A DNA stretch of 64,000 nt from Desulfurellaceae bacterium (GTDB lineage Bacteria; Desulfobacterota; Binatia; Bin18): positions 20,116 to 84,115 of the forward strand of contig JAGWBB010000001.1 of assembly GCA_021296095.1 (NCBI GenBank), written 5' to 3'. Below the pieces are notes generated by a model. It was not told where the DNA came from and ran no database searches. It saw nothing but the letters and a program-made list of their open reading frames with translations. Of the stretch, positions 2,292-41,026 are shown piece by piece (the stretch's first letter is position 1; each line of letters begins with the position of its first letter). The translations under genes and the position numbers were made by a program.

Positions 2292-2321
2292 GGCCCGTTG
2301 TAGACGCCGGGGACGGGGGTC

Positions 2322-4778: not shown

Positions 4779-4903
4779 ACCATCCTCCTTGCTGAAGTCT
4801 GGGCTCAACCTATACCAGCCGATACACCGGAGCTAGACGGGCGGGCTGAGACCGCTTCCGACGGAGCCCGATGTAGGCTATGCTTCGCCCCAGGAGACAT
4901 CCT

Positions 4904-5969: not shown

Positions 5970-6494
5970 ATGAGTATCCGCGTTCTGAGTCCGACCTTTG
6001 AGCAAGCCGTGGACCAAAACGGACGGGTGCCGCGTCTGACCTCGTTGCACGGCTGCACCCTGGGGCTGTTGGACAACAGCAAAATCAAAGTCCGCGAGCT
6101 GCTCGACCATGTGGAGGAGCTGCTGCGGACCGAGTATGGCGTGGCCCATGTCGTGCGGCTCAGAAAGCCCGACGCCAGCCGGCCCGCCCCCCCAGAGCTG
6201 GTGACCGAGATGGCGCGCTGTGAGGCCGTCATCTCGGCCGTCGGCGATTGAGGCAGCTGCTCGTCGTGCAGTTTGCACGACGCCCTGAGCGCTGAAAAAG
6301 CCGGCGTGGCGGCCACCGCCATCATCACCGACCGCTTTGTCCAAACCGCCCAGGTCATGGCCCGGGTTTCGGGCATGGCGGATTATCCGTTCGCCGTGAT
6401 TGCCCACCCGATCGCCAATAACAGCCAGACCGTGCTGCGCGACAAGGCCCAACAGGCGCTGCGCCAGTGTGTGGAGCAGCTGGTGCAGGGCTAG
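5970..6494 (+). CDS. UGSC-motif selenoprotein (in-frame UGA at 6249-6251 read as selenocysteine)
   Basis: ORFs 5970..6251 and 6273..6494 are in the same frame, separated only by TGA; readthrough gives '...AVISAVGD-U-GSCSSCSLHDAL...'; a SECIS-like hairpin lies immediately 3' of the TGA; GGGAGGAG RBS upstream of the 5970 ATG. Confidence 0.75.
6249..6282 (+). promoter_or_regulatory. Sec-UGA codon plus bacterial SECIS-like hairpin (CGTCGTGCA-GTT-TGCACGACG)
   Basis: Perfect 9-bp inverted repeat at 6262-6270/6274-6282, starting 11 nt after the UGA; the apical loop contains G-U; this geometry matches the bSECIS placement requirement. Confidence 0.6.
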
Positions 6495-27067: not shown

Positions 27068-28096
27068 ATGCGACGCGTAAACAGCCCCGAATCCAGCCCT
27101 CCATGCGTCTATATCGTCAGTCACGGTCCGGGCTGCCTGGATGGTGTGGCCGCAGCCGTGGCGGTTGCCCGCTACCGGGCTGGGGCCAGACTGATTCCCC
27201 GCTTCGCCTCAAATAGCCGTATTGACCAGGTGCTGCGCTCGATCAGCCCGGAGCACACCCCTGCGGGCAGCGAGGTGTGGATCACCGACATCTCGTGGAC
27301 TGAGGAAGCGACTAACACCCACCTGCGGCAACTCGCGGACAGGGGCGTCAAGCTGTACTGGTTCGACCACCACCGGACGGCTCTCGCCCGGCATGCCAGT
27401 GGGGCAATCCACGCCCCCTTCACCGACTATGAGCTGAGCGAAGCCGTGTCAGGCGCCCGCCTGGTGTACGAATATCTGGAGCGGCGGCTGGCCGCCAGCG
27501 ACCAAGCCAACGAGGCGTTTCGGGCCTTTGCGCCGGTTGTGGCCCAGGCCGATGACAACGACCGCTGGATCCACGCCATCCCCGGTTCGCGTGAGCTGGC
27601 CTTAACCGTCAGCACCCTGGCCGGCACCGATGATGACAATCTCGACGCCTACCACGCCCTGCTCGATATTGATGCCGATATCACCTACAGCCCGGCCATG
27701 CGGGCGGCCTACGAACAATCGACCCGCGAGATCAAAGACAGTTTCGCCCTGGCCCAGCGCAGCAGAGTCCGGCGGGCAGGACCGGACGGCAGCAGCCTGG
27801 TCTGCGCGGTGTGTGACGGCTATCCGAGCGAAATCGGGGACAGCTGGGGCAAACAGGCGACCAACACCGTCTTTGTCCTCTATGACCGCAAACATGGGGG
27901 GGTCAGTCTGCGCCGCTCCCCGGACTGCCAGGTTGACCTGTCCAAGCTGGCCCAGATGTTCGACGGCGGTGGCCATCCTGCGGCGTCCGGCTGTCGGCCG
28001 CACGAGCTGCCCGAGCTGATCGCCCGCAGCGTGGCTGGGCTGTTCGCCTCGGGTTTGCAGGACCTGTTTGATGCGGACCGCACGGAATCGGACTAG
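27068..28096 (+). CDS. DHH-family phosphoesterase with DHHA1 domain (NrnA-like)
   Basis: 'WFDHHRTA' DHH motif; 'GGGHPAASG' DHHA1 motif; trimmed to MRRVNSP. Confidence 0.7.
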   Translation: MRRVNSPESSPPCVYIVSHGPGCLDGVAAAVAVARYRAGARLIPRFASNSRIDQVLRSISPEHTPAGSEVWITDISWTEEATNTHLRQLADRGVKLYWFDHHRTALARHASGAIHAPFTDYELSEAVSGARLVYEYLERRLAASDQANEAFRAFAPVVAQADDNDRWIHAIPGSRELALTVSTLAGTDDDNLDAYHALLDIDADITYSPAMRAAYEQSTREIKDSFALAQRSRVRRAGPDGSSLVCAVCDGYPSEIGDSWGKQATNTVFVLYDRKHGGVSLRRSPDCQVDLSKLAQMFDGGGHPAASGCRPHELPELIARSVAGLFASGLQDLFDADRTESD

Positions 28097-28902
28097 GCCG
28101 CCCGGCCAGCCCGCTTTTTGCGAGCCGGGGCAAGCTCGTAGGCGTAATCAATAGTCAGCGGCGCATGATCGGAAAAGCGCTGGTCTTTATAAATCCACGT
28201 CCGGCGAGCCTTGGCCGCCAAGCCAGGGGTGGCAATCTGGTAGTCCAGCCGCCAGCCAACGTTCTTGGCCCAGGCCTGCCCCCGATTTGACCACCAGGTA
28301 TACTGCTCAGGTTCGCGATTCAGGCGTCGGAACACGTCGACAAAGCCGATCTCGTCAAAGACGCGGCTCAGCCACTCCTGTTCCTGGGGCAAAAAACCCG
28401 AATTTTTCTGATTCGAGCGCCAGTTCTTCAGATCCTTCTGGGTATGGGCGATATTCCAATCTCCGCACACCACCACATGTCTACGACTGGTCCGCAGCGC
28501 GCGCAGCTCGGGCGCCAGACGTTCCATGAACGCATACTTGGCCGCCTGGCGCTGCTCCGAACTTGAGCCCGACGGCAGGTACAGCGACACCAAGCTCAAC
28601 CGGCCGAAGTCGGCCCGCAGATAGCGTCCCTCGGCATCAATATCGGCGTGCCCCAAGCCGCACCGCAGGGCGTCTGGCGGGCGCCGGGCATACACCCCGA
28701 CCCCGGAATAGCCACGTTTCTCGGCCGGATGGAAATATCCGCTCAGCCCCGGGGGTTGGCGCAGAGCGGGAGACAGATCGGCCTCCTGGGCTTTCAGCTC
28801 CTGAACGCACACCAGATCGGGCTGCTGGTCTGCTAGCCAGACAAAAAATCCCTTGCGGGCGGCCGAGCGGATACCGTTGAGATTGCACGAGATAATGCGC
28901 AT
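28093..28902 (-). CDS. xthA: exodeoxyribonuclease III
   Basis: 'MRIISCNLNGIRSA...LVCVQELK' and C-terminal 'SDHAPL' motifs of the ExoIII/APE family. Confidence 0.85.
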   Translation of the reverse strand: MRIISCNLNGIRSAARKGFFVWLADQQPDLVCVQELKAQEADLSPALRQPPGLSGYFHPAEKRGYSGVGVYARRPPDALRCGLGHADIDAEGRYLRADFGRLSLVSLYLPSGSSSEQRQAAKYAFMERLAPELRALRTSRRHVVVCGDWNIAHTQKDLKNWRSNQKNSGFLPQEQEWLSRVFDEIGFVDVFRRLNREPEQYTWWSNRGQAWAKNVGWRLDYQIATPGLAAKARRTWIYKDQRFSDHAPLTIDYAYELAPARKKRAGRAA

Positions 28903-28917
28903 GAAGCCTTCCTGCGA

Positions 28918-29163
28918 TTAGCGGAGGCGCGGTCGGGGAACTGGATCGCAGCCGCCAGCACACCAGGGGTGACAGCGGCCGAGGCGTTTGAGGGTCAGAC
29001 CCAGGGCCCGGAAAAAGGAGTGAAGCTGAAAACACTCGATGGCGTACTGGGAACAGCTGGGCAGAAACCGGCAGCCGGCCTGCGGGCCGAACACGGCCGG
29101 CAGGAGCGGCGACACCAGGCGCTGATAGACGCGCAGCAGCCCGATCAGACTCCGGCACCCCAT
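28918..29163 (-). CDS. yidD: membrane protein insertion efficiency factor YidD
   Basis: 'CRFLPSCSQYAIECFQ...RLGRCHPWCAGGCDPVP' is the YidD signature. Confidence 0.7.
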   Translation of the reverse strand: MGCRSLIGLLRVYQRLVSPLLPAVFGPQAGCRFLPSCSQYAIECFQLHSFFRALGLTLKRLGRCHPWCAGGCDPVPRPRLR

Positions 29164-29222
29164 CGCGCCGAGGCCGGCCCGGATGCCGCAGGCTGCTGTG
29201 TCGTGCCGATCCATGCACCCAA

Positions 29223-29308
29223 TCTATCCCAGCCGCAGCCAAAAGGACACCGGCGGCCAGGCTGGGATAGGCGACTAATCTTGACAGTCCCTGCCGGGCT
29301 GGATAAGA
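29223..29308 (+). promoter_or_regulatory. 11-bp perfect inverted repeat (CTATCCCAGCC-N25-GGCTGGGATAG) abutting a TTGACA-N17-TAAGAC promoter-like element upstream of the DyP peroxidase gene
   Basis: Perfect TTGACA at 29280-29285; -10-like TAAGAC 17 nt later; GAGGAGGA RBS before the ATG at 29342; the IR sits where an operator would. Confidence 0.3.
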
Positions 29309-29341
29309 CGGGGAGTAGCAAATTCTAGAGAGGAGGATTAC

Positions 29342-30265
29342 ATGGCAACACCTCAACCTGCCGTACTGAACAGGGATATGGGTCAGCATCAATGGTACGT
29401 CCATCTGAGCCGGCTGGACGGCGCGGATATGGGTCGGATCAAGTCTGCTGTCTCCCAGCTCCGTAAAGACTGCGACGATCAGGGTATCAACCTGACCATC
29501 GGCGTCGGTCCGAGCCTATTGTCAGACCTGACGGATGACGTGCCCAGCGATTTTCAGCCCTACGAAACCTTTCGGTCTGTTGATGGCAGCGGCAAAGAGG
29601 CCAAGGGGACCCAAGAAGAGCTGCTGTTCTGGCTGAACCACGACGACAAAGACAAGGTCTGGAAGACGCAGTTTGACGCCCGCCGGGCGCTCAGGGAGGA
29701 CATGCGCGTCGCCCGCGAGACCATGACCTTCATCTATGGCAACTCCTTTGACATGACCGGCTTCAAAGACGGGACCGGCAACCCCGACCCCGAGCGCGAT
29801 GTCGAGGTGGCTATTGTTCCGGACGGGGAACCCGGAGCGGGCGGCAGCTTTATCATCGCCCAGCGCTGGATCCATGACCTTGAGGCCTGGAATCTGCTGC
29901 CGGTTGATGAACAGGAAAAAGTCTTTGGCCGGACCAAGGGGGAAGAATCCGCCAAGCTGTCCCCCCTGCCCCCCCACTCGCACCTGGCGCACCACGAGCT
30001 ACGTGAGGGCAAAACGGGCGATGAGAGCACGCCCAAACGTGACGAGATCTCCCGCCGTTCGACGCCGTATGCCTTCCACGATGGAACGGTCGGCCTGTAT
30101 TTCATGGCCTTCTGCAAGTCTCAGGCGCCGCTACGCGAGCGCATGCGGGCCATGTATGGGATGGATGGCCAGCTACGCGACCGGCTGACATCGTACAGCA
30201 ACCCGGCGTCGGGCTCGTTCTATTTTGCCCCGTCGGTCGAGACGCTGGACAAGGCGCTGTCGTAA
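29342..30265 (+). CDS. Dyp-type (dye-decolorizing) peroxidase family protein
   Basis: 'FDMTGFKDGTGNP' GxxDG motif and overall DyP pattern. Confidence 0.8.
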   Translation: MATPQPAVLNRDMGQHQWYVHLSRLDGADMGRIKSAVSQLRKDCDDQGINLTIGVGPSLLSDLTDDVPSDFQPYETFRSVDGSGKEAKGTQEELLFWLNHDDKDKVWKTQFDARRALREDMRVARETMTFIYGNSFDMTGFKDGTGNPDPERDVEVAIVPDGEPGAGGSFIIAQRWIHDLEAWNLLPVDEQEKVFGRTKGEESAKLSPLPPHSHLAHHELREGKTGDESTPKRDEISRRSTPYAFHDGTVGLYFMAFCKSQAPLRERMRAMYGMDGQLRDRLTSYSNPASGSFYFAPSVETLDKALS

Positions 30266-30287
30266 GGCAGCCCTCTGCCTCGCAGCA

Positions 30288-30321
30288 AACGGGGTCTCCT
30301 TGGGGGAGGCCCCGTTTTTTT
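30288..30321 (+). terminator. Rho-independent terminator (GC-rich hairpin + T8)
   Basis: AAACGGGGTCTCC-TTGG-GGGAGGCCCCGTTTTTTTT directly after the DyP stop. Confidence 0.7.
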
Positions 30322-30324
30322 GGC

Positions 30325-30927
30325 TCAGCATTTTTCCAGGCTGAACACCGCCGTCGTCGCCCGCAGATTTTTATAGCGGACGTTCTTCAGGCGCCGCGTG
30401 TGGGCCAGATAGCGCTCCTGCGCGATGCGGACTTCCAGCCGCTGGCAGAAGTCGCCAAAGTCGGCCACCGTAAAGGCCTGCCAGCGGGGCGCCTGATGCC
30501 AGCGTTCGGGCAGGTCAGAGGCGTGCGGGATGCGCCCGGTCAGCAGCAGCTCAAACCGACACCGCCAATAGCCCCAGTTGGGAAAACTGACAATCGCCTG
30601 TTTGCCGACCCGCAGCATCTCCTCGACGATCATGGCCGGATCGTCCAGAAACGGCAGCGTCTGGCTCAGGATCACATAGTCGAAACTGGCCGCCGGATAA
30701 TCGGCCAACCCCTCTTCGAGGTTGCCCTGGCGCACGCTCAAACCGCGCCGGACACAGGTCAGAATCCCATCCTCGCCCAACTCGATGCCCCGTCCGGTCA
30801 CCTGTTTCTCGCGGACGAGGTACTCGAGCAGGGCGCCGTCCCCACACCCCAGGTCAAGAATACGGACCTGGGGGGGCACCAGATCGGCGATGACGAGTAG
30901 GTCGGAACGCAGGCTGACAGGGCTCAC
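30325..30927 (-). CDS. metW: methionine biosynthesis protein MetW
   Basis: 'SDLLVIADLVPPQVRILDLGCGDGALLEYL' MetW signature; start placed at the GTG just downstream of the metX stop (the ORF-track N-terminus overlaps metX by ~100 nt). Confidence 0.8.
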   Translation of the reverse strand: MSPVSLRSDLLVIADLVPPQVRILDLGCGDGALLEYLVREKQVTGRGIELGEDGILTCVRRGLSVRQGNLEEGLADYPAASFDYVILSQTLPFLDDPAMIVEEMLRVGKQAIVSFPNWGYWRCRFELLLTGRIPHASDLPERWHQAPRWQAFTVADFGDFCQRLEVRIAQERYLAHTRRLKNVRYKNLRATTAVFSLEKC

Positions 30928-30943
30928 AGCGTGGTCTGCCCGC

Positions 30944-32164
30944 TCATGCAGCCACCCCGGTCTTCCGCCCCTTTTGATTGCGGGTCGGCGGATGGGACGA
31001 GGGGCCGGCGGGCACAGTGATACCCTCATCGTGGACCAGGCGGTCAAGAAAACTGCCGAGTAAACTGGTCATGGTCTCGACTTCGAGCAGAAACGCGTCG
31101 TGCCCCCACGAACTCTGTACGTCGAGATAGGTCACATCGGCCCCGGCGGCGGTCAACGCGCTGACCAGCTCTTTGCTGTGATAGCTCGGATACAGCCAGT
31201 CGCTGGTAAAGCTGACGACCAGATATTTGAGCCCAGCCGAGTTGGCAAACGCGGCGGCCAGGGAACCGGTCGTGGCGCTCAGGTCGAAATAGTCCATCGC
31301 CTTGGTGATATACAGATAGCTATTGGCGTCAAACCGGCGAGTAAAGTTATTGCCCTTGTATTTCAGATAGCTTTCGACCTGAAACTCGGTCCGAAATTCA
31401 TAGCCGTAGCGGACGCGACCCTGCAAACGACGGCCGAACTTCTGCTGCATGGACTCTTCGCTCAGATAGGTGATATGGCCGACCATCCGCGCCACGGCCA
31501 GCCCGGCGTCGGGTTTGGCCTCGGCGCTGTAATAATCACCGTTATTCCAGGCCGGGTCTGCGTAAATGGCCTGGCGACCGACCTCACTCAGCGCGATCAG
31601 CATCGGGCTGTGGTGGGCCGTGGTGGCGACCGGGATGGCCGCCCGGACGCGCTTCGGATGCGCGGCTGCCCACTCCAGGGCCTGCATGCCGCCCATTGAG
31701 CCGCCGGCCACGCACAGCAACCGGTCAATCTCCAGGTGATCCACCAGCCGAACCTGGGCGCGGACCATATCGCCGATAGTCACGACCGGGAAACGCATGC
31801 CGTACGGCGTCTGGGTGGCCGGGTCGAGATGGGCCGGACCGGTCGAGCCGTAACAGCCGCCCAGGACGTTGCTGCAGATGACAAAGAAGCGGTCGGTATC
31901 AAAGGCCTTGCCCGGTCCGATGCAGTCGTCCCACCAGCCCAGACGCCCGTCCTCGGGCTCGTAGTGGCCGGCGGCGTGGGCACTCCCGCTCAGCGCATGG
32001 GTGATCAGAATGGCGTTCGAGCGGTCCGCGTTCAGCTGCCCGTAGGTCTCATAGGCGAGGCTGACCGGGCTCAGCGTTGTCCCGCTGTCAAGCGGAAACG
32101 GCTGCTGCTGGGCAAAGGTGAGTTGGTGCGGCTGGACAATGCCGACATCGCCAGTACTGCTCAT
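30944..32164 (-). CDS. metX: homoserine O-acetyltransferase
   Basis: 'ILITHALSGSAHAAG' and alpha/beta hydrolase pattern typical of MetX. Confidence 0.9.
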   Translation of the reverse strand: MSSTGDVGIVQPHQLTFAQQQPFPLDSGTTLSPVSLAYETYGQLNADRSNAILITHALSGSAHAAGHYEPEDGRLGWWDDCIGPGKAFDTDRFFVICSNVLGGCYGSTGPAHLDPATQTPYGMRFPVVTIGDMVRAQVRLVDHLEIDRLLCVAGGSMGGMQALEWAAAHPKRVRAAIPVATTAHHSPMLIALSEVGRQAIYADPAWNNGDYYSAEAKPDAGLAVARMVGHITYLSEESMQQKFGRRLQGRVRYGYEFRTEFQVESYLKYKGNNFTRRFDANSYLYITKAMDYFDLSATTGSLAAAFANSAGLKYLVVSFTSDWLYPSYHSKELVSALTAAGADVTYLDVQSSWGHDAFLLEVETMTSLLGSFLDRLVHDEGITVPAGPSSHPPTRNQKGRKTGVAA

Positions 32165-32195
32165 GGGTTGTCTCGGTCAGCTCTCCGCCGGAGCG

Positions 32196-33494
32196 CTAGC
32201 TGCTGGCCGCCCTGAGGGCCTGGTCCAGGTCCCACACAATGTCATCGGCGTCTTCTATGCCGACACTCAGCCGGACGAAATCGGGCGATACCCCGGCACT
32301 CAGCAACTCGTCCTCGTTGAGCTGGCTGTGGGTCGTGCTGGCCGGGTGGATAGCCAGACTCTTGGCGTCCCCGACATTGGCCACATGGCTGTGAAGTCTG
32401 AGGCTGTTGATAAAGGTCTCGCCCGCCGCACGCCCGCCCTTGATCCGAAAGCCCAGGATCGATCCGGCGCCGCGGGGCAGATATTTCTGGGCTCTGGCGT
32501 GGTCCGGGTGCTGGGCCAGGCCGGGAAAGGCGACCGATTCGACCCCGGGATGGGTGTCGAGAAACTCGGCCACCTGCTGAGCGTTTTCGACATGGCGCTG
32601 CATACGCAGACTCAGCGTCTCAACTCCCAGCAGGGTGGTGAAGCTGTCAAACGGCGCCTGACAGCCGCCCACGTCGCGCAGGATCTGCACCCGAGACTTG
32701 AGAATCATGGCCGGGGCGCCCAGGTCGGCGTACACCAAGCCGTGATAGGACGGGTCCGGTTCGGTGAAATTGGGAAAGCGGCCGCTTCGCCAGTCAAAAT
32801 TGCCGCCATCAATAATCGCCCCCCCAATCGCCGTGCCGTGCCCGCTCAGAAACTTGGTTGTGCTGTGAGTCACAATGTGCGCCCCCCAGTCAAACGGCCG
32901 GCACAGGTAGGGCGTGGCAAAAGTGTTGTCGATCATGATCGGAATATGGTGGGCCCGCGACACCTCGGACACCTCGTCAAACGGAAAAACTGTAATGTCC
33001 GGGTTTCCCAGGGTCTCACCGTAGAGAATCTTGGTGTTGGGCTGGACCGCGGCGGCAAACTCCTCGGGTTTGGTCGGATCGACAAAGGTCGTCGTAATCC
33101 CCATGCGCGGAAAGGTGTGGGTGAACTGGTTATACGTCCCGCCATACAGGCGGCTGCTGCTGACGATATGATCGCCCTGCCCGCACAGGGCCATGATGGC
33201 CATCATCTGGGCCGCGTGGCCGCTGCTGGAAACCAGGGCGCCGACCCCGCCTTCGAGCGAGGCCAGGCGCTGTTCCAGGACATCGTTGGTCGGATTCATG
33301 ATGCGGGTATAGATATTGCCGGGCTCTTTGAGGGCAAACAGGTCGGCCGCGTGCCCGGTGTCTTTGAACTGATAGCTGGTGGTGTGGTAGATCGGCACCG
33401 CCCGACTGCCGGTGGTCGGATCGGGCTGTTGGCCGGCGTGCAGCTGACGGGTGCTGAATCCGTATTGGCGCTCATGCGTCTGGTTGGCGCTCAT
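32196..33494 (-). CDS. metY: O-acetylhomoserine aminocarboxypropyltransferase (sulfhydrylase)
   Basis: PLP-dependent Cys/Met metabolism family; 'MSANQTHERQYGFSTRQLHAGQ' MetY-typical N-terminus. Confidence 0.9.
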   Translation of the reverse strand: MSANQTHERQYGFSTRQLHAGQQPDPTTGSRAVPIYHTTSYQFKDTGHAADLFALKEPGNIYTRIMNPTNDVLEQRLASLEGGVGALVSSSGHAAQMMAIMALCGQGDHIVSSSRLYGGTYNQFTHTFPRMGITTTFVDPTKPEEFAAAVQPNTKILYGETLGNPDITVFPFDEVSEVSRAHHIPIMIDNTFATPYLCRPFDWGAHIVTHSTTKFLSGHGTAIGGAIIDGGNFDWRSGRFPNFTEPDPSYHGLVYADLGAPAMILKSRVQILRDVGGCQAPFDSFTTLLGVETLSLRMQRHVENAQQVAEFLDTHPGVESVAFPGLAQHPDHARAQKYLPRGAGSILGFRIKGGRAAGETFINSLRLHSHVANVGDAKSLAIHPASTTHSQLNEDELLSAGVSPDFVRLSVGIEDADDIVWDLDQALRAASS

Positions 33495-33563
33495 GCGTTA
33501 TTCTCCCTCGTGATGCCAGGTTCGGCCTCGTCCCTCTTGCCAAGGTGGCTGGCGTTCGTCCGA

Positions 33564-33594
33564 GTATAGCGGGAGAAGACGTGGGGCAGCAAGA
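33564..33594 (-). promoter_or_regulatory. candidate sigma-70 promoter of metYXW (TTGCTG-N18-TATACT)
   Basis: Read on the minus strand in the 190-nt divergent intergenic region; -10 is ~70 nt upstream of the metY ATG; coordinates are approximate. Confidence 0.25.
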
Positions 33595-33684
33595 CGCTGA
33601 GTGTTGCGGCCCGCGTTGCAGGACCCGGTACGGCTGGCTATGATGCCCCCATCGGCCTGTCACCAACAGGCGAAGGAGGATCCC

Positions 33685-34047
33685 ATGCCAGGTAAATTCT
33701 GTGTTTCTCTCACCCACGCCAAAGACAACCCGGATAAAGCCACCGTCGCCTTTGTGATTGCCAATGCCGCGGTCGGCTCCGATCAGGAAACCCTGGTATT
33801 TTTGAGTACCGAAGGCGTGCGCTTGGCCGTCAGCGGCTATGCCGACGATATCCGTGAAGACGGATTTCTGCCCCTCAAAGAGCTGATGACAAACTACGCC
33901 GAAGCCGGCGGGACGATCTATGTGTGCTCGCCGTGCTTCAAGAGACGGGGCCTGGACGAAAACAGTCTGGTGCCGGGGGCGAAGATCGTAGGCGGAGCCA
34001 AGCTGATCGAGTATCTGGCCGACGGCACACCGTGTGTGTCGTACTGA
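33685..34047 (+). CDS. DsrE/DsrF-like family protein
   Basis: ~120 aa; conserved Cys context 'YVCSPCF'; GAAGGAGGA RBS; trimmed to MPGKFCVS. Confidence 0.65.
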   Translation: MPGKFCVSLTHAKDNPDKATVAFVIANAAVGSDQETLVFLSTEGVRLAVSGYADDIREDGFLPLKELMTNYAEAGGTIYVCSPCFKRRGLDENSLVPGAKIVGGAKLIEYLADGTPCVSY

Positions 34048-34101
34048 TCCGAATCGTTCTCCCGCTTGTCGCTGCAGCTCAGAGACGAGAGCGCAGGAGT
34101 C

Positions 34102-35679
34102 ATGGCAATGGATGAGCACCCGTATCAGCCGCACGACAGTTTTGACGGTGGCGATCTCGACTGCGGAAACGGTCTGCTGTTGCTGATCCGCAAACATATC
34201 GATCCGCTCACTCTAGGCCAGCTGCTCGAGATTCTGTCAACCGAATCCTCCGTCGTCGAAGACCTGCCGGCCTGGTGCCGTCTGACCAAGAATGAGCTGG
34301 TCTCCCATATCCGGCGCGGCCAGCAGAACAGTTTTCTGGTCTCCAAAGGGCCGCATCACAAGCCGGCCGACCGGGTGCCAACGCCGTCACCTGTCCAGAA
34401 GCATCGGCACAAAAAAACGCGAACGCCGCGCACGGACAGGGAACCGGCGCCGATCACCCAGCCAATCAAAGAGGTGGTCATTCCCGACCAGTTGCCGGCC
34501 CCTCAGCCCGCCTCGGCTATTGCCCCGCTGTCGGTCATGAACATCGGCAGCTGGCCGCGTCCGCCGTGGTTGCTGCGGGCGCTGAACGACCATCTCGAAG
34601 GACGGATGCCGGACGACGAGTTTTCACGCACGGCCGAAGACGCGGTGCGTCTGGCGGTTGCCGCCCAGCAGCGGGCCGGGGTCCAGGTCGTGACCGACGG
34701 TGAGCAGCACCGCGACAACTATGCCAGCTTTGTGGGCGGCCTGCTCGACAACTGTCAGCTGATCCCCATCACCGACCTGCTGCCCTATGTTGACGACCCG
34801 CACGAATTTGAGCGCGAACTGCGCGCCCTGGACGTGCCGGCCGGTAAAGTCCGCCATCCCGCAGTGTTCGGTCCCCTGGGGCGCAGCCGTTCGCTCACCG
34901 TTCACGAGGCCGAGTTCTTGCGGGGTCTGACCCCGGCGCCGCTGAAAGTCGCCCTGCCCGGCCCCTACCTGTTGACCCGGACGATGTGGATGGAATGTAT
35001 CTCAGACCGGGCCTACGACACCCGTGAAGACCTCGCCACCGACATTGTCCGGGTGCTGCGCGAGGAGGTGCATCATCTGCTGGCCGCCGGCGTGTCCCTG
35101 GTCCAGCTTGACGAGCCGGTTCTGACCGAGGTCGTCTTCAGCGGCACGATCACCAACCGCACCTTCATGTGCGGCGCCCTGGGAGAAAAACGCGAACCCG
35201 CAGCCGAACTCGCCTTGGCCGCATCGCTCATTCAACAGGTCGTCGCAGGTCTGCCACGCGAACGCCTGGGCCTACACATCTGCCGCGGCAACTGGACCCC
35301 GGACGAGAGCGTTGCCCTGGCCGGCGACTATGTGCCACTCATCCCGCTCCTGCAAAAGCTGCCGGTGGGGACGTTTTTCCTCGAGCTGTGTACCCCGCGG
35401 GCCGGCGATATGGAGGTCCTGGCCGCGCTGCCGGCCGAGGCGCGTATCGGCGTCGGTGTGGTCAACCAGAAGCATCAGGCCACGGAAAGCCTTGAGGAGG
35501 TTTTGGCCAGGGCCGAGCGCGCCGTCGCCCTGTTCGGACCGGAACGGGTCCTGCTCAACCCGGACTGTGGCTTTGCCACCTTTGCCGACAACCCCATCGT
35601 TTCGGCCCAGCAGGCCGAGCACAAGCTGGCGGTCATGGTCGAAGCCGCCGCCCGGCTACGGGAGCGCTATCCACTGTAG
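34102..35679 (+). CDS. fusion protein: N-terminal TusA-like domain + C-terminal core-MetE-like (cobalamin-independent methionine synthase C-terminal/UROD-MetE superfamily) zinc methyltransferase domain
   Basis: N-terminus 'DLDCGNGLLLLIRKHIDPLTLGQLLEILSTE...DLPAWCRLTKNELV' parallels TusA 'LDxRGLxCPxP...ipaWcr..gh.l'; C-terminus has 'LVQLDEP', zinc ligands 'LHICRGN' (H-x-C) and 'NPDCGF'. Confidence 0.6.
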   Translation: MAMDEHPYQPHDSFDGGDLDCGNGLLLLIRKHIDPLTLGQLLEILSTESSVVEDLPAWCRLTKNELVSHIRRGQQNSFLVSKGPHHKPADRVPTPSPVQKHRHKKTRTPRTDREPAPITQPIKEVVIPDQLPAPQPASAIAPLSVMNIGSWPRPPWLLRALNDHLEGRMPDDEFSRTAEDAVRLAVAAQQRAGVQVVTDGEQHRDNYASFVGGLLDNCQLIPITDLLPYVDDPHEFERELRALDVPAGKVRHPAVFGPLGRSRSLTVHEAEFLRGLTPAPLKVALPGPYLLTRTMWMECISDRAYDTREDLATDIVRVLREEVHHLLAAGVSLVQLDEPVLTEVVFSGTITNRTFMCGALGEKREPAAELALAASLIQQVVAGLPRERLGLHICRGNWTPDESVALAGDYVPLIPLLQKLPVGTFFLELCTPRAGDMEVLAALPAEARIGVGVVNQKHQATESLEEVLARAERAVALFGPERVLLNPDCGFATFADNPIVSAQQAEHKLAVMVEAAARLRERYPL

Positions 35680-35772
35680 ACCCGCTGATACCGACACAGT
35701 ATGGCCTTTCTTTGGGGACCGTCTGCTGCTACAAGCCGTCCATAAACCCCCAGACCTTCAGGAGACGAAAAC

Positions 35773-36258
35773 ATGACACAGCTCCGCATAGAGGGTGAGG
35801 TTTCCACTCCCCAGGCTTTCAGCTTCAGCGACCTGACTCGGCTGCCCGGCCAGATCGCCGATGTCGGGCAGTTTATTCCCGGCCGTGACGGCGGCGGTGT
35901 TCGCCTGCGGTCTCTGCTCGAGCGGGTCAGCCCCGCGGACAGCGCTCGGTATATGACCCTCGAATCCAGCGATGGAAAATTTTCGGCCAGCCTGCCCATC
36001 ACAGCCGTGCAGGACGCCATTGTGGCCTATCGGCTGGGGGATGCACCGCTGCCGACCAAAAAAGGCGGCCCATTTCGCTTTTTTATTCCCAATGTCGAGG
36101 AGTGTGCGGTTGGCGAGGTTGACGCGTGTGCCAACGTCAAATTTCTGGGGCGCCTGCACCTGAGCCACGAACCCGGTCGGGATGTCCGTCCGACCAGCCC
36201 GGTATCGCACCAAGCTCACCACGAACAACCGGGCCATGAGCACCTGCCCAAAGACTAG
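35773..36258 (+). CDS. sulfite-oxidase-like molybdopterin-binding (Oxidored_molyb) domain protein
   Basis: 'AIVAYRLGDAPLPTKKGGPFRFFIPNVE' matches the 'LAyemNGepLp.dHGaPlRlvvPg' core of SO-family Moco domains; CAGGAGA RBS. Confidence 0.5.
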   Translation: MTQLRIEGEVSTPQAFSFSDLTRLPGQIADVGQFIPGRDGGGVRLRSLLERVSPADSARYMTLESSDGKFSASLPITAVQDAIVAYRLGDAPLPTKKGGPFRFFIPNVEECAVGEVDACANVKFLGRLHLSHEPGRDVRPTSPVSHQAHHEQPGHEHLPKD

Positions 36259-36261
36259 GTC

Positions 36262-36702
36262 ATGCCCCTCGATATACCGCCAGCCAAAGCCGGTGTTGTG
36301 GCCACCCGCCCCACGGCCACAGCCGAGCCTGAGGTGTTGCTGATCACCAGCCGCAAACATCCCCACAGCTGGATTTTTCCGGTCGGCACGGTTGAGCCGG
36401 GAGAAAATCTGGAGCGGGCAGCCGCCCGGGAGTGTGCCGAGGAGAGTGGCTATACGGTTGAGGTCGGACGCCTGTTAGCCACGCTCAGGTTGGCGGGTGA
36501 GGCTGGCGGAGCGGCGCAGCCATTTTTTTTCTTTGCCGCCAGCGTCGCCGGCGAGTGTACGACGTATGAAACCGACCGCCAGCGGTGCTGGGTCGGGCTG
36601 TCACAGCTCGTCGAGGCTGTGGCCGAGGTGTTCAGCCCGGTGGCCCGGGCCGCGGTGGAACACTGGACTTCAGACAGACCGTCCGTCGCTCGCACGCCCT
36701 AG
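36262..36702 (+). CDS. NUDIX hydrolase
   Basis: Nudix box 'GTVEPGENLERAAARECAEESG'. Confidence 0.8.
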   Translation: MPLDIPPAKAGVVATRPTATAEPEVLLITSRKHPHSWIFPVGTVEPGENLERAAARECAEESGYTVEVGRLLATLRLAGEAGGAAQPFFFFAASVAGECTTYETDRQRCWVGLSQLVEAVAEVFSPVARAAVEHWTSDRPSVARTP

Positions 36703-36737
36703 CTTCAGACCCGCCCCCGTCCGTGTGACGGACTCGC

Positions 36738-38438
36738 CTATTCTTGGGTCACCCGCAGGACTTCGGCCACCGTTGTCAGGCCCTGACTCACCGTCCGCCA
36801 GCCGTCGTCGCGCAGGACGCGCATGCCTTGGGCGGCAGTGGACCGGTTCTTAATTATGTCGGCCGAGGCGCGTTTGAGAATCAGCGGGCGGATGTCTTCA
36901 TCGACAGACATCAGCTCAAAGATGCCCCGCCGACCGTGATAGCCGGTGTTGGCGCAGGCCTCACAGCCGACCGCTTCATAGGTCAGAGACGGAGCGGACG
37001 ACACGCCGTTGGCAACGCCGTTTGACCCGAGCCCATGCCCCTCAAACCCCACCCCGCTATGGCTGGGACGGCGGCACTGGCGGCATAATGAGCGGACCAG
37101 GCGCTGGGCCATCACCCCCAGCAGCGAGGAGGCCAACAGATAGTCCTCAACCCCCATCTCCAGGAGCCGGGTGATAGCCCCAGCGGCATCGTTGGTGTGC
37201 AGGGTCGAGAACACCAGATGACCGGTCAGCGCGGACTGGATGGCAATCTCAGCGGTTTCATAGTCACGAATCTCACCGATCATAATGACGTCCGGGTCCT
37301 GGCGCACGATGGAACGCAGCCCCGAGGCAAAGCTGAGGCCGATTTGGGGTTTGACGTGGACCTGGTTGACACCGCTCAGCTGGTACTCGACCGGGTCCTC
37401 GATGGTAATGATCTTTTTGTCTGGAGAGTTGATTTTGTCCAAAGCCCCGTACAGCGTAGTCGTTTTTCCGCTCCCGGTCGGTCCCGTCACCAGGATCATG
37501 CCGTAGGGCTTGGCAATCAGGGCCTCGAACAACTCCAGGGTATCGGCCGGAAAGCCTAAGGATTCGAGGCTGAGCGTAATACTGGAGCGGTCGAGAATAC
37601 GCAGGACAACGCTCTCTCCGTACAGCGTCGGCAGGGTCGAGACCCGCAGGTCCACCTCACGGCCGAGCATGCGCAGCTTGATCCGCCCGTCCTGGGGCAG
37701 GCGGCGTTCGGCGATATTCAGCTTGGCCATCAGCTTGACGCGCGAGATGAGGGCGGCCTGCATCCAGCGCGGCGGAGACTCGATATCGTGCAAGATGCCG
37801 TCAATGCGGTAGCGGACCCGCAGTTCCTTTTCAAACGGCTCAATGTGGATATCTGAGGCGCGCTGTTCCATGGCCCGAGAGATCATGACGTTGACGAGGC
37901 GGATGACCGGGGCCTCGCTGGCCAGGTCGCGCAGGTGGGCGACAACGTCCTGATCCTCTTCGAGATAGCCGCCCTCCCCGTTGTTCGCTTCCAGACCGTC
38001 GGGCGACCCGTCTCCCTCGGTGTCGTAGGCGCTCAGTGCGTCAAGCAGCTCACGTTCGCGCGCCAGCCGGCGCACCACACGCAGACCGGTCGCCTTCTCC
38101 AGGGCTTCGATCGTGTCGACATCCCCCGGATCGGCCATGGCAGCGACGAGCTGGCCGTCCTCGACACGCAGCGGGCAGATGCGTGCCTGACGAAAATAGG
38201 CCGGGTTAATAGAGTCGAGGGCGGGAGGATCTTGCGGAAAGTCGCGCACTCCGATCAGCGGCGCCCGGTAGTAGTCGGCCAGCACGGGCAGCAGATCGTC
38301 CTCGGACATGAAACCGAGTTCGAGCAGCAGACGTTCCATGGGTTCGCCACGTTGCTGCTGGACCAGCTGGACCCGACGCAGATCGTCGGAGGACAGCTTG
38401 CCGGTCGCCAGTAGCAACTCATCGAGCCGACTCATCAC
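36738..38438 (-). CDS. type II secretion / type IV pilus assembly ATPase (GspE/PilB family)
   Basis: N-terminal GSPII_E_N domain; Walker A 'LVTGPTGSGKTTT'; tetracysteine 'CRQCRRP...CEACANTGYHGRRG'. Confidence 0.85.
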   Translation of the reverse strand: MMSRLDELLLATGKLSSDDLRRVQLVQQQRGEPMERLLLELGFMSEDDLLPVLADYYRAPLIGVRDFPQDPPALDSINPAYFRQARICPLRVEDGQLVAAMADPGDVDTIEALEKATGLRVVRRLARERELLDALSAYDTEGDGSPDGLEANNGEGGYLEEDQDVVAHLRDLASEAPVIRLVNVMISRAMEQRASDIHIEPFEKELRVRYRIDGILHDIESPPRWMQAALISRVKLMAKLNIAERRLPQDGRIKLRMLGREVDLRVSTLPTLYGESVVLRILDRSSITLSLESLGFPADTLELFEALIAKPYGMILVTGPTGSGKTTTLYGALDKINSPDKKIITIEDPVEYQLSGVNQVHVKPQIGLSFASGLRSIVRQDPDVIMIGEIRDYETAEIAIQSALTGHLVFSTLHTNDAAGAITRLLEMGVEDYLLASSLLGVMAQRLVRSLCRQCRRPSHSGVGFEGHGLGSNGVANGVSSAPSLTYEAVGCEACANTGYHGRRGIFELMSVDEDIRPLILKRASADIIKNRSTAAQGMRVLRDDGWRTVSQGLTTVAEVLRVTQE

Positions 38439-38446
38439 GCACCGCC

Positions 38447-39142
38447 CTAGTCAATCAGCGATCCCAGGCGCTCCCAGCGCACCCAGCGGTCGGTCCCGTC
38501 CCAGGACCAGTAGATCAGAAAGGCTTTGCCCTTGACATCGTGCACATCGACGAAGCCCCAAAACCGGCTGTCGTGGCTGTGGTCGCGGTTATCACCCATC
38601 ACAAACAGCCGGTTGGCCGGGACGCGAATCGGCCCAACGTTATCGCGTGGCCCCGGCCGTTCCTGATCGGCTTCGGCGAAGGTGGCGTACGGCTCGTCGG
38701 CCGGCCGGCCGTTGATGAGCAGTTGTTTATGCCGGATCTCGACCGTATCTCCACCAACCGCCACCACCCGTTTGATGAAGTCTTTGCTGCTGTCTTTGGG
38801 GTAGACAAAGACAATGACGTCACCGCGCCGGGGTTGCCCCCACAGGACGAGGGGCAGATCGAGAGGGTACGGCAGACGCAGCCCGTACAGAAACTTGTTG
38901 ACCAGGATGTGATCGCCGACCTGGAGGGTTGTCAGCATCGAACCCGAGGGGATTTTAAAGGCTTGGACGATGAAGCTGCGGATGAATAGGGCCAGCAGCA
39001 GGGCCACCAGCAGGGCTTCGGTATATTCCCGGACAACGGATTTTTGCCTGAGCTTGGCCCGCGAGGCGGCCACCGGCTTGTCTCCGGCAGTCGGAGGGTC
39101 CGGCTCGAAGGCGACCCGTGCGGACGGTTTGTGCTTGGCCAT
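38447..39142 (-). CDS. lepB: signal peptidase I
   Basis: 'IPSGSMLTTLQVGDHILVNKF' catalytic Ser box and 'GDNRDHSHDSR' box E. Confidence 0.85.
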   Translation of the reverse strand: MAKHKPSARVAFEPDPPTAGDKPVAASRAKLRQKSVVREYTEALLVALLLALFIRSFIVQAFKIPSGSMLTTLQVGDHILVNKFLYGLRLPYPLDLPLVLWGQPRRGDVIVFVYPKDSSKDFIKRVVAVGGDTVEIRHKQLLINGRPADEPYATFAEADQERPGPRDNVGPIRVPANRLFVMGDNRDHSHDSRFWGFVDVHDVKGKAFLIYWSWDGTDRWVRWERLGSLID

Positions 39143-39183
39143 AGCCCGCCTAGCGCCCCCGGCACAGACCGTTGGCAAAAGGT

Positions 39184-39223
39184 AAACGAGGATCTCTGCT
39201 CGACGCGGTGGTCATCATCGTTC
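39184..39223. repeat. degenerate copy of GTGAACGATGATC-type palindromic intergenic element at the lepA/lepB junction
   Basis: AAACGAGGATCTCT ... GGTCATCATCGTTCC, followed by a T-run; compare the copies at 46205-46307 and 49963-50008. Confidence 0.3.
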
Positions 39224-41026
39224 CCCTTTTTCGCCAACCCGCAGCAGAGCCAGAAAAGCGTCCTGGGGAATCTCAACCCGTCCGACTTGCTTCATACGCC
39301 GCTTCCCCTCTTTTTGCTTTTCTAGCAGTTTTCGCTTACGGGTAATATCCCCTCCGTAGCACTTGGCGGTGACGTTTTTGCGCAGGGCTTTGACGCTTTC
39401 ACGGGCGATGACCTTGTTGCCGATGGCCGCCTGGACCGCCACCTCAAACATCTGGCGCGGAATCAGCTGGCGCATTTTCTGGACCAGCTCACGCCCCCGG
39501 CTGTAGGCTTGATCGCGGTGGACGATCAGCGACAGGGCATCCACGATGTCGCCGTTGATGCGCACGTCGAGCTTGACCAGATCGGCCGGCCGGAGGTCAA
39601 GCAACTCGTAGTCGAGCGACGCATAGCCCCGGGTGACCGACTTGAGGCGGTCGTGGAAGTCAACCACGACCTCATTGAGCGGCAGCTCGTACAGCACCAT
39701 GACGCGTTGGGGGGCTGGGTATTTCAGCTCGCGCTGGACGCCACGCCGTTCCTGACACAGCTGCAGGACGTTGCCGAGATAATCGGTCGGGACGTGGATG
39801 GTGGCCAGAATGAACGGCTCTTCAAGCGCCGCAATCTCCTGGACCGGGGGCAATAGCGCCGGATTATCGACGAGCAGCGAGTCGCCGTCCAGCGTCCGCA
39901 CCCGGTATTCAACCGTCGGCGTGGTGGTGATCAGATCCAGACCAAACTCACGTTCCACGCGCTCCTGGACGATTTCCATGTGCAGCAGGCCCAAAAAACC
40001 GCACCGGAAGCCAAACCCGAGCGCCAAAGAACTCTCTTTTTCATAGCTCAGCGAGGAGTCGTTCAGCCGGAGTTTTTCCATGGCATCGCGTAGCGCGTCA
40101 TACTGGTGGGACTCGACCGGATAGAGGCCGCTGAACACCATCGGCTTGACCTCCTTGAAGCCGGGCAAGGGCTGTCGGGTCGGTCGCTCAGCGTCGGTAA
40201 TCGTATCCCCGACCCGGGCCTCGGTCACCGTCTTGATGTTGGCCATCACAAAGCCCACCTCGCCGGGCCCCAGCGCGGACACGGCCAGCGGCCGCGGGGC
40301 AAACACGCCGATCTGGCCGACCTCGTAGACCATGCCGGTTGATACGAACTGGATGCGCATCCCGGCCCGCAGCACGCCGTCAAAGACACGCACCTGGACC
40401 ACCGCTCCCTGGTAGGGGTCAAACCAGCTATCGAACACCAGGGCGCTGAGCGGCCGCCGGGCGTTGCCCTGAGGCGGGGGAACCGTCTGGACAATCCCTT
40501 CCAGCACGTCGAGAATCCCGCGTCCGTGTTTGGCGCTGGCCAGAACGGCCTCGCTGCCGTCCAGACCGATCACGTCCTCCAATTCGGCTCGCACGCGCTC
40601 GGGGTCGGCGCTAGGCAGGTCTATTTTGTTGATGACCGGCAGAATTTCCAGCGAGTGGTCCAGGGCCAGATAGGTATTGGCCAGGGTCTGGGCTTCCACC
40701 CCCTGGACGGCATCAACAACCAGAACGGCGCCCTCGCACGCCGACAGGCTACGCGAGACCTCATAGGAAAAGTCAACATGGCCGGGGGTATCGATCAGAT
40801 TCAGGCAGTAGGTCTCGCCGTCCTGGGCCTGGTAGCCGAGGCGCACCGTCCGCGCCTTAATCGTAATCCCCCGCTCCTGCTCCAGATCCATGGTATCCAG
40901 AAACTGGGTCGCCTCTTCGCGTTCGCTGATTGAGCCCGAATATGACAGCAGCTTGTCGGCCAGCGTCGATTTGCCGTGATCGATGTGGGCGACAATGCTG
41001 AAGTTGCGAATCAGGCTGCTGTTCAT
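39215..41026 (-). CDS. lepA: translation elongation factor 4
   Basis: '[22 protein letters not shown]' and full-length LepA pattern. Confidence 0.95.

Follow-up and report, generated by a model that had tools for sequence, protein, structure and literature searches.

In the 64,000-nucleotide stretch of a Desulfurellaceae bacterium analysed here (contig JAGWBB010000001.1 of assembly GCA_021296095.1, class Binatia; the whole stretch is called the window below), a gene for a DsrE-like protein precedes a gene for a 525-residue fusion of a TusA-like domain with a catalytic barrel of the MetE type. These two genes are the functional unit of the locus, and they are the Binatia version of a cassette with the order small TusA - DsrE - TusA::MetE. 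The fusion belongs to the MetE catalytic superfamily but, judging from its partner genes and its model scores, is not MetE proper, MesA-C or MesD/MesX, and we assign it to a new family of core MetE-like enzymes that is set apart by a cysteine-relay partner. We propose, with a probability of roughly 0.4, that the cassette is a cysteine-based chalcogen relay, passing on persulfide or perselenide, which ends at the MetE-type zinc/homocysteine site. An earlier note on this stretch had described the DsrE-like gene and the 525-residue TusA/MetE fusion divergent from metYXW, and the gene starts, Pfam matches and motifs agree with that description. The small stand-alone TusA, an ATP-binding cassette (ABC) importer and an association with selenium genes are absent from the picture it gave. 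The genes and domains of the cassette in the window are:

33685..34047, plus strand: DsrE-like gene, 120 residues (Pfam DsrE, E=9e-16)
34102..35679, plus strand: gene of the TusA::MetE-type fusion, 525 residues (Pfam, AlphaFold2 (AF2), Foldseek)
34129..34356, plus strand: TusA-like domain of the fusion, approximately residues 10-85 (Pfam, PDB matches, AF2 secondary structure)
34522..35676, plus strand: core-MetE-like (beta/alpha)8 barrel of the fusion (alignment to E. coli MetE and to MesD 3RPD, Foldseek)

The DsrE-like gene starts at ATG 33685, with the ribosome-binding site AAGGAGG at 33673-33679, and the fusion gene starts at ATG 34102 with AGGAG just 5' of it. Within the fusion, a disordered Pro/Lys-rich linker connects the TusA-like domain to the zinc barrel, which is of the MetE C-terminal type.

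The fusion family comprises 5822 database homologues, of which the best 120, from several phyla, show 64-96% identity; between Binatia, Actinomycetota, Planctomycetota, Burkholderiales and others the identity is 64-70%. The closest relatives of the locus are found on chromosomes of Binatia metagenome-assembled genomes (MAGs), with 76-84% protein identity. Gene neighbourhoods were compared in 159 unique loci (cited as L with a number), drawn from 80 loci of species-representative genomes, 80 of metagenomes and a few more, using tblastn and a home-made open reading frame (ORF) caller weighted by GC content at third codon positions (GC3), and the counts below refer to loci, not to independent evolutionary events. 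The loci span Binatia, Actinomycetota, Planctomycetota, Burkholderiales, Rokubacteria, Methylomirabilota, Dehalococcoidia, Acidobacteriota and Paracoccus. The TusA domain is fused in all of them (159/159), and DsrE lies upstream of the fusion in 131 of the 136 testable loci, directly adjacent in 109, a pairing far beyond chance. The link between a MetE-type enzyme and sulfur-carrier proteins that had been read from the window alone is thus conserved across phyla. De novo clustering of the neighbours revealed little that recurs beyond this core, and the cassette behaves as a self-contained unit shifting between contexts. In two MAG loci a stop codon breaks the fusion ORF (L011, at about residue 306, and L033, at about residue 338); these copies may be pseudogenes or misassembled.

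The barrel is recognised by Pfam as Meth_synt_2 (PF01717, E=4e-26). The AF2 model of the fusion, with a predicted local distance difference test score (pLDDT) of 83.6 and a predicted template modelling score (pTM) of 0.76, is matched by Foldseek to the MesD methionine synthase 3RPD with E=1.8e-21 and a template modelling (TM) score, on the target, of 0.81, and to the C-terminal barrels of MetE with E ~1e-20, whereas UroD/MtaA-type proteins reach just E ~1e-8 and a TM score of ~0.5. This fold comparison rules out a UroD/MtaA-type methyltransferase and bears out the MetE-type assignment made earlier. The view that the barrel comes without the folate-binding half holds as well: Pfam found no Meth_synt_1 domain, and the sole trace of one is a 17-bit stretch that lies inside the catalytic domain of the fusion.

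The catalytic residues of the MetE family are retained throughout. In a MAFFT alignment, Ser433, Glu484, Asp599, Glu665 and Cys726 of E. coli MetE correspond to Ser150, Glu201, Asp337, Glu428 and Cys489 of the fusion; the zinc motif H-M-C (641-643) of E. coli MetE was paired with H392-I-C394 by motif, MAFFT having shifted this segment. The zinc ligands, His392/Cys394, Glu428 and Cys489, are all invariant in 64 homologues, and the cysteines among them, Cys394 and Cys489, are kept in 95 of 95 loci. The homocysteine-binding residues Ser150, Glu201 and Asp337 are identical across all compared sequences and also invariant in the 64 homologues; the equivalent Ser/Glu/Asp residues contact selenomethionine in 3RPD (PMC7857596). 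The invariance of this triad argues for an amino acid, and not just a protein persulfide, in the active site. Two additional cysteines of the barrel are conserved, Cys299 in the motif MWMEC (88 of 95 loci) and Cys357 (93 of 95 loci). Cys357 resides in a flexible R-T-F-M-C loop, with pLDDT <50 at residues 358-360, which is common to the rhodanese-linked sister clade described below. All motifs pointed out earlier were found, namely DLDCGNG (with Cys21), DLPAWCR (Cys59), VQxDEP (Asp337), HxCRGNW (His392/Cys394) and PDCGF (Cys489), and they are essentially invariant in the 64 homologues.

Even so, the fusion scores far below every curated methionine synthase model. The best one, NCBIfam PRK04326 'methionine synthase', gives 162 bits against a cut-off of 406, followed by PRK09121, which we take to be the MesD-type model (102 against 392), PRK00957 (76 against 258), TIGR01371 for canonical MetE (71 against 930) and PRK01207 (39 against 399). 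With all scores 2.5- to 13-fold below the cut-offs, we rejected membership of the MesA-D, MetE or YxjG-type families. The threshold used by Price et al. for the MesD family is at least 560 bits to ACIAD3523. A profile search with the catalytic domain returned 3565 relatives, among which are more divergent TusA-fused members with 48% identity, one of them again with DsrE directly upstream. Others are unfused proteins of 370-395 residues with 33-46% identity, and none of the 10 unfused representatives scanned reaches any curated methionine-synthase cut-off.

The TusA-like domain of the fusion scores 27.6 bits with Pfam TusA (PF01206), just under the gathering score of 28.6, and matches TusA/YhhP in the PDB at E=4e-3; PF01206 is precomputed on most fusion homologues. 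The putative active-site residue Cys21 sits in the invariant FDGGDLDCGNGLLLLIR loop, in which CGNG replaces CPxP, and a second cysteine, Cys59, is found in DLPAWCRL. Cys21 is kept in 86 of 86 aligned loci and Cys59 in 82 of 86. The AF2 secondary structure (E12-15, H25-33, E41-46, H50-61, E65-72 and E75-81; beta-alpha-beta-alpha-beta-beta, pLDDT ~90) corresponds to the predicted two-layer alpha/beta fold of TusA with the conserved cysteine at the start of helix 1. Fold, Cys21 and PDB matches therefore uphold the earlier designation as TusA-like, which is borderline at the level of the Pfam score.

The DsrE-like protein is well above the Pfam cut-off (PF02635, 58.5 bits against 22.7), and its nearest solved structure is 3MC3, a DsrE/DsrF-like protein. 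It contains a CxxC motif, C81-S-P-C84 within YVCSPCFKRRG, which is kept in 63 orthologues. A separate small TusA-like gene lies upstream of DsrE in 79 of 122 testable loci. It is found in most of the loci outside Binatia and is absent from the lineage of the window, with none elsewhere in the 64-kb window. The small protein is characterised by the motif WDAGDLGCGELV...DIPAWCRMTGH and has CGEL or CGDL at the active site, as against CGNG in the fusion. The sequences thus mark the TusA-like and DsrE-like proteins of the cassette as variant subfamilies, with CG(N/E)x replacing CPxP and a single DsrE bearing CxxC.

Several optional partners accompany the cassette. A substrate-binding protein (SBP) similar to HtxB is encoded in 22 of 88 testable loci. 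The Burkholderiales operon has the order DsrE-like2 - TusA - DsrE - SBP - permease - ATPase - fusion, and in a second lineage SBP - permease - ATPase lie directly upstream of TusA - DsrE - fusion. With HtxB, a binding protein for hypophosphite, the SBP shares ~50% identity (E=1e-76), and the permease and ATPase match PhnE and PhnC models. Read against the published HtxB structure, the SBP retains Trp52 and the Asp206-Arg178 cap and carries the substitutions Asn128->Ser and Phe158->His, which are the third-oxygen ligands of phosphite-binding PtxB; this pattern corresponds to the uncharacterised 'hybrid' HtxB/PtxB group of Bisson et al. These residues suggest that the ligand is an XO3 anion whose fourth substituent is very small, candidates being phosphite, sulfite, selenite and perhaps thiosulfate, and the SBP scores 76 bits with the model of a 'putative selenate ABC' SBP. 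The importer slot of Paracoccus, L055, L079 and L162 is taken by hyp168, a small CVSC-containing membrane protein, and a signal-peptide protein (hyp522, the membrane-pair gene counted in 3 of 88 testable loci). A secreted transglutaminase-like protein is encoded just upstream in ~10% of the loci (9 of 88 testable), mostly of the Planctomycetota type. As for redox and sulfur-mobilising genes, the cassette of Paracoccus is accompanied by a divergently encoded cysteine desulfurase and, downstream, by TrxB; L145 has a peroxiredoxin and TrxB within the cassette operon, L038 a flavoprotein disulfide reductase nearby and L080 a glutaredoxin.

The nearest unfused relatives, a sister clade with 44% identity found mainly in Chloroflexi (P0129), are annotated as 'cobalamin-independent methionine synthase II family' and carry the flexible-loop motif R-T/S-F-M-C, including the equivalent of Cys357. 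In five loci of this clade (L085, L089, L090, L091 and L092), the genes are arranged as rhodanese - MetE-like - OsmC-like. The recruitment of rhodanese, a sulfurtransferase of a different fold, to the same enzyme clade is the strongest sign that the link to sulfane-sulfur carriers is functional. The OsmC-like proteins comprise 177 residues; in both sequences inspected the first OsmC cysteine is kept and the second, peroxidatic-pair cysteine motif is replaced by SPV (TSPVHNC in L090, LSPVLN in L089), so they are probably not ordinary hydroperoxide reductases. The gene contexts of the more distant unfused relatives P0137 and P0161 were uninformative.

Genes of selenium utilisation form another recurrent neighbourhood, within 10 kb of the cassette in 7 of the 159 loci and in at least four lineages. 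SelD is encoded 3-7 kb from the cassette in L038, L046, L051 and L113, and L145 encodes a fusion of NADH dehydrogenase and SelD on the strand of the cassette, a few genes further upstream. In Paracoccus, SelA, the selenocysteine tRNA (tRNA-Sec) and a UGSC selenoprotein surround the cassette, and SelA, SelB, tRNA-Sec and a UGSC selenoprotein are near it in L080. By our own rough estimate, chance would place three single-copy genes within 10 kb in well under one locus. The window itself encodes a UGSC-family selenoprotein 28 kb from the cassette (5970-6494, plus strand, with an in-frame TGA at 6249-6251 in the motif ...AVGD-U-GSCSSC...), which is missing from the mechanical ORF list because the selenocysteine codon splits the ORF. 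A GC-rich hairpin ~10-15 nt after the UGA fits a bacterial selenocysteine insertion sequence (SECIS), with an unexceptional energy (z = -1.0). The in-frame TGA indicates that the Binatia host uses selenocysteine. DsrE-like proteins with UxxC are a known selenoprotein family (PMC2398784); among the first 94 loci, before the metagenome sample, there was no in-frame TGA at the conserved cysteines of DsrE or the fusion.

Further observations concern the surroundings of these selenium genes. A protein of ~360 residues with no Pfam hit (hyp363) is encoded next to the UGSC gene in the window (4880-5965, plus strand), in the Paracoccus locus L093 (1066-2157, minus strand) and in L080 (3755-4774, minus strand), the pair being just 2-4 kb from the cassette in the latter two; hyp363 may be the 'Unknown_1' partner or fusion domain of UGSC proteins (PMC2398784). 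As a lead to other selenium genes in the window it gave nothing, its neighbours apart from the UGSC gene being a glutathione S-transferase and a sigma factor. In L093 (Paracoccus ferrooxidans pFER4), the adjacent E3U26_23345 and E3U26_23350, both annotated as 'hypothetical protein', are one UGSC gene read through a TGA (2154-2723, minus strand; …VGLAN-U-GSC…), and the UGSC gene of L080 is likewise read through a TGA. In four loci of the Burkholderiales type, a pyridoxal phosphate (PLP) enzyme resembling cysteine synthase/cystathionine beta-synthase (CBS), with CBS domains, is encoded near SelD a few kb downstream of the cassette; it directly adjoins SelD in L051 (11464-14265), L046 and L113 and is two genes off in L038.

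Upstream of the cassette, the window carries a methionine gene block on the opposite strand, and downstream a gene that the earlier note had counted as the third member of the cluster:

~30325-30900, minus strand: metW (NCBIfam MetW, 217 bits)
30944-32164, minus strand: metX, homoserine O-acetyltransferase (NCBIfam MetX, 528 bits)
32196-33494, minus strand: metY, O-acetylhomoserine (OAH) sulfhydrylase (NCBIfam, 654 bits)
30325..33494, minus strand: the metW-metX-metY block as a whole, divergent from the cassette, a Binatia-specific neighbourhood
33495..33684, no strand: divergent metY/DsrE-like intergenic region of 190 nt (sequence and alignment)
35773..36258, plus strand: partial Oxidored_molyb gene, 161 residues (Pfam), outside the conserved cassette

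The adjacency to metX, metW and metY occurs in nine Binatia loci, within which the divergent order is stable, and nowhere else; MetY is near the cassette in 9 of 88 testable loci. Conservation of the cluster next to met genes in relatives, on which the earlier reading had depended, thus ends at the border of Binatia. The three-gene cluster is not conserved as a unit either. The gene of the 161-residue protein adjoins the cassette in L001 and L002 only, the two closest relatives; in other Binatia it is ~7 kb off or undetected within 8-kb flanks, and it is absent elsewhere. We dropped it, together with a NUDIX gene that follows on the plus strand, as a member of the cassette for this lack of conserved adjacency. 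Homologues of the 161-residue protein were seen a few kb from the cassette in the Binatia loci L004, L005 and L042. The protein had been called sulfite-oxidase-type, which is valid at the level of a partial domain: it matches Oxidored_molyb with E=4e-16 over profile positions 73-163 of 169 only, and the best PDB match is weak (E=3.5e-4 over 66 residues). A complete molybdopterin domain with the Mo-ligand cysteine was not found in it. We take the Mo-ligand cysteine of the sulfite-oxidase family to lie N-terminal of the matched part, and residues 1-110 of the protein contain no cysteine. Because of the partial domain and the missing cysteine, it is probably no canonical molybdoenzyme of the sulfite-oxidase type.

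In the intergenic region, a sigma70-like promoter of the plus strand is predicted at TTGCAG (33616-33621) and TATGAT (33639-33644), separated by a 17-nt spacer. An alignment of 10 Binatia loci shows the TTG-N17-TATGAT block, ~35-45 nt before the DsrE ATG, and the ribosome-binding site to be conserved. The closest relatives also conserve a TATAC/GAGTATAGCG element, which may serve metY. With the promoter-like element only 35-45 nt from the DsrE ATG, there is no space for a riboswitch. A riboswitch for S-adenosylmethionine (SAM) or cobalamin, for which the earlier note had proposed a search of 33495-33684, was not found: Rfam gave no match at E<=1 in the window from 28000 to 40000 and no SAM or cobalamin riboswitch at the gathering score in 24 cassette or sister-clade loci of many phyla. 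The neighbouring LysR genes were considered as orthologues of MetR or CysB and set aside, the identity being just 22-37% and uninformative.

In the relay that we propose, sulfane sulfur would be taken up as a protein persulfide, derived from cysteine via a desulfurase or from an imported XO3-type oxyanion (thiosulfate, sulfite), and in selenium-using hosts selenium from selenite would be taken up instead, as perselenide. The sulfur would be handed between the TusA and DsrE cysteines to Cys21 and/or Cys357 of the mobile loop. The persulfide would then be presented to the zinc site, where Ser150, Glu201 and Asp337 would hold a homocysteine-type amino acid, and the zinc-activated chalcogen would enter C-S bond chemistry, as in the MetE family. 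In the version that we prefer, activated homoserine, the product of MetX, would alkylate the terminal persulfide sulfur to yield homocysteine as an enzyme-bound mixed disulfide, from which the DsrE CxxC pair and a thioredoxin-type reductase would release it, constituting a sulfide-independent route parallel to MetY. We place less confidence in this homocysteine-forming step than in the relay family as a whole. Sulfur insertion through attack by a persulfide and subsequent resolution of the disulfide is well established, e.g., in ThiI, and epoxyalkane:coenzyme M transferase may offer an analogy for the alkylation.

The relay is the simplest reading that covers all contexts of the enzyme, namely desulfurase, rhodanese, oxyanion importer, reductases, metX/metY and SelD. 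It also builds on the divergent metX/metW/metY adjacency throughout Binatia, which links the cassette to homoserine activation, on importer genes embedded in two different gene orders, and on the conservation of Cys21, Cys357, the zinc cysteines and the CSPC of DsrE. DsrE and TusA homologues have been demonstrated experimentally to be carriers of sulfur or thiosulfonate (PMC4175335, PMC11094781). The cassette would then represent a new enzyme class, in which a dedicated TusA/DsrE relay delivers a protein-bound persulfide or perselenide as the substrate of a MetE-type zinc site for alkyl transfer, a claim we advance tentatively and with the odds somewhat against it. Several points weigh against the relay and its homocysteine-forming version. 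The esters of homoserine vary by lineage (acetyl, succinyl, phospho) while the enzyme stays 65-70% identical, so a universal substrate such as homocysteine fits better. The Binatia locus would be simplest as a complete pathway from homoserine to methionine if the fusion were a methionine synthase. A purely sulfur-based route to homocysteine leaves the association with selenium genes, in 7 loci of at least four lineages, unexplained, and the Pfam score of the TusA domain is marginally below threshold. We also know of no precedent in the MetE fold for alkylation of a zinc-bound persulfide by O-acylhomoserine.

Alternatively, the fusion would simply be a fifth folate-independent 'core' methionine synthase family, which converts homocysteine and a methyl donor to methionine, with the TusA domain, DsrE and the small TusA in place of the N-terminal barrel, corrinoid proteins or MesX. 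The carriers might present the methyl donor or keep an oxidation-sensitive zinc/cysteine site reduced, a protective role that the OsmC, Prx, TrxB and Grx neighbours would suit. MesD, the closest solved structure, is a methionine synthase, every zinc ligand and homocysteine-binding residue of MetE/MesD is invariant, and the core families differ mainly in their partner (PMC7857596); the Binatia locus, divergent from metX-metW-metY, would hold the whole route from homoserine to methionine. However, a cysteine thiol or persulfide is chemically implausible as a methyl donor, and rhodanese, cysteine desulfurase, oxyanion importer and SelD would be left without explanation. The met-gene adjacency is limited to one class (9 of 88 loci), no SAM or cobalamin riboswitch turned up in the window or the 24 related loci, the best curated methionine-synthase score is 162 bits against a cut-off of 406, and the Burkholderiales cassette resides in a transporter operon typical of nutrient scavenging. 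We regard a core methionine synthase as rather unlikely.

The selenium genes invite a different reading. The HtxB-like ABC system or hyp168/hyp522 would bring selenite into the cell, the TusA/DsrE cysteines would reduce it to a protein perselenide for delivery to SelD, and the MetE-like domain would act on a selenium species, e.g., by removing a methyl group from a selenium-carrying intermediate at the homocysteine site or by alkylating it there. The clustering within 10 kb in 7 loci of at least four lineages, against a chance estimate of well under one, the UGSC selenoprotein encoded 28 kb away in the window, the existence of UxxC selenoproteins among DsrE-like proteins, the cassette DsrE having CxxC (PMC2398784), and an SBP pocket suited to an XO3 anion with a tiny fourth substituent, with 76 bits to the 'putative selenate ABC' model, all point in this direction. 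Most cassette loci, though, have no selenium gene nearby, the first 94 loci contain no selenocysteine (TGA) variant at the conserved DsrE and fusion cysteines, and a homocysteine-binding MetE barrel has no obvious job in delivery to SelD. The metYXW and rhodanese contexts read equally well or better as sulfur, and the clustering may reflect only shared thiol-redox partners such as the UGSC/hyp363 pair and TrxB. We regard a selenium module as unlikely. Far less probable still is the unit of the earlier note taken whole; metYXW would then function together with DsrE, the fusion and the molybdopterin-domain protein and share their control through the 190-nt region, and a persulfide would serve as methyl acceptor to give methanethiol, from which MetY would make methionine. 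MetY-type enzymes can use methanethiol, the genes adjoin in the window and its two closest relatives, and the divergent arrangement is kept in Binatia. Yet the molybdopterin-domain gene is adjacent in L001 and L002 only and matches half of the Pfam domain, each operon has promoter-like elements of its own, with no shared conserved operator or riboswitch seen, the metYXW adjacency is absent outside Binatia, and the invariant amino-acid-binding triad would have nothing to do if a persulfide were the only acceptor.

Among known systems, MesD/MesX (Acinetobacter ACIAD3523/3524; Shewanella 3RPD) resembles the cassette in having a single MetE-type barrel without the folate half and a dedicated partner protein. 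MesD is the best match to the fusion by sequence and fold (E=1.4e-24, TM score 0.81) and has the same zinc ligands and Ser/Glu/Asp contacts to the amino acid. The identity is only ~25%, however, and the N-terminal TusA, the RTFMC cysteine loop and the MWMEC motif are extra features of the fusion; its partner is TusA/DsrE, whereas that of MesD is DUF1852 (MesX), which we did not find among the Pfam-annotated or recurrent neighbours of the cassette. Canonical MetE, archaeal split MetE and MesA-C share the Meth_synt_2 domain, the HxC...E...C zinc site and the homocysteine triad. Unlike canonical and split MetE, the cassette has no N-terminal folate barrel, fused or neighbouring, and unlike the contexts of MesA, MesB and MesC, its recurrent neighbours include no corrinoid (MtrA, CoFeSP) or Wood-Ljungdahl genes. 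The relays of TusA-DsrE(FH)/TusBCD and the DsrE3A-TusA thiosulfonate carriers likewise have TusA-like and DsrE-like genes side by side with conserved cysteines. They differ in the CPxP of TusA, as opposed to CG(N/E)G/L in the cassette, whose DsrE is a single 120-residue protein with CxxC, and in leading to DsrC, sHdr or tRNA thiolation instead of a MetE-type enzyme; in addition, the hosts of the cassette are mostly not sulfur oxidisers.

As for the importers, thiosulfate uptake by YeeE/YeeD (TsuA/TsuB) also pairs the uptake of a sulfur oxyanion with a TusA-like protein (PMC11073785), whereas the transporter of the cassette, where present, is an ABC system of the phosphite/hypophosphite family or the hyp168/hyp522 pair. 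The HtxBCDE/PtxABC importers are similar in their SBP, with the ~50% identity of the Burkholderiales protein to HtxB, and in their PhnE/PhnC-type permease and ATPase. They differ in that no htxA or ptxD lies near the cassette importer, which is embedded in a TusA/DsrE/MetE cassette. The B12-independent 'MetE-fusion' methionine synthase of Phaeocystis likewise consists of a core MetE domain with further domains fused to it, and a methyl donor other than folate has been proposed for it (PMC10861871). This protein is eukaryotic and contains PP-binding, CzcO/pyridine-nucleotide oxidoreductase and polyketide synthase (PKS) domains with no TusA or DsrE, an architecture that rules out identity with the fusion. 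A literature search combining TusA or DsrE with MetE or methionine synthase returned no paper describing the fusion or the cassette, in line with the earlier note, which had called the link of sulfur carriers to a MetE-type enzyme undescribed. In the source annotations, the homologues appear as '5-methyltetrahydropteroyltriglutamate--homocysteine methyltransferase' or 'sulfurtransferase TusA family protein'.

The cassette is noteworthy as it is abundant and highly conserved between phyla while being annotated merely as 'methionine synthase' or 'TusA family protein'. If persulfide sulfur is used, it would open a new way for sulfane sulfur to enter amino-acid synthesis, i.e., a route from thiosulfate or cysteine sulfur to homocysteine/methionine that is independent of PLP and of free sulfide. 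If the fusion is instead a methionine synthase, it would add a fifth partner type among the core synthases and change which soil and freshwater lineages, for the most part known through metagenomes, are predicted to be auxotrophic for methionine or B12. Should the selenium link be true, it could supply, in selenium-using bacteria, the long-sought specific route channelling imported selenite to SelD, the selenophosphate synthetase. The 'hybrid' HtxB/PtxB-type ABC importer would, if our reading is true, transport chalcogen oxyanions (selenite, sulfite, thiosulfate) and not phosphorus. The cassette is directly testable because it is present in culturable bacteria, namely Paracoccus versutus/ferrooxidans, Duganella, Massilia, Paraburkholderia sp. 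J67 and Burkholderia multivorans WS-FJ9.

Nothing in the surroundings of the cassette suggests a mobile island in this genome, and the GC content is flat around it, at ~0.62-0.64. The flanking genes are ordinary housekeeping genes, encoding a DyP-type peroxidase, a GspE-like ATPase, the signal peptidase LepB and LepA (29342-30265, plus strand; 28093-28902, minus strand; 36738-41026, minus strand), and an exonuclease III-like nuclease is also apparent by eye.

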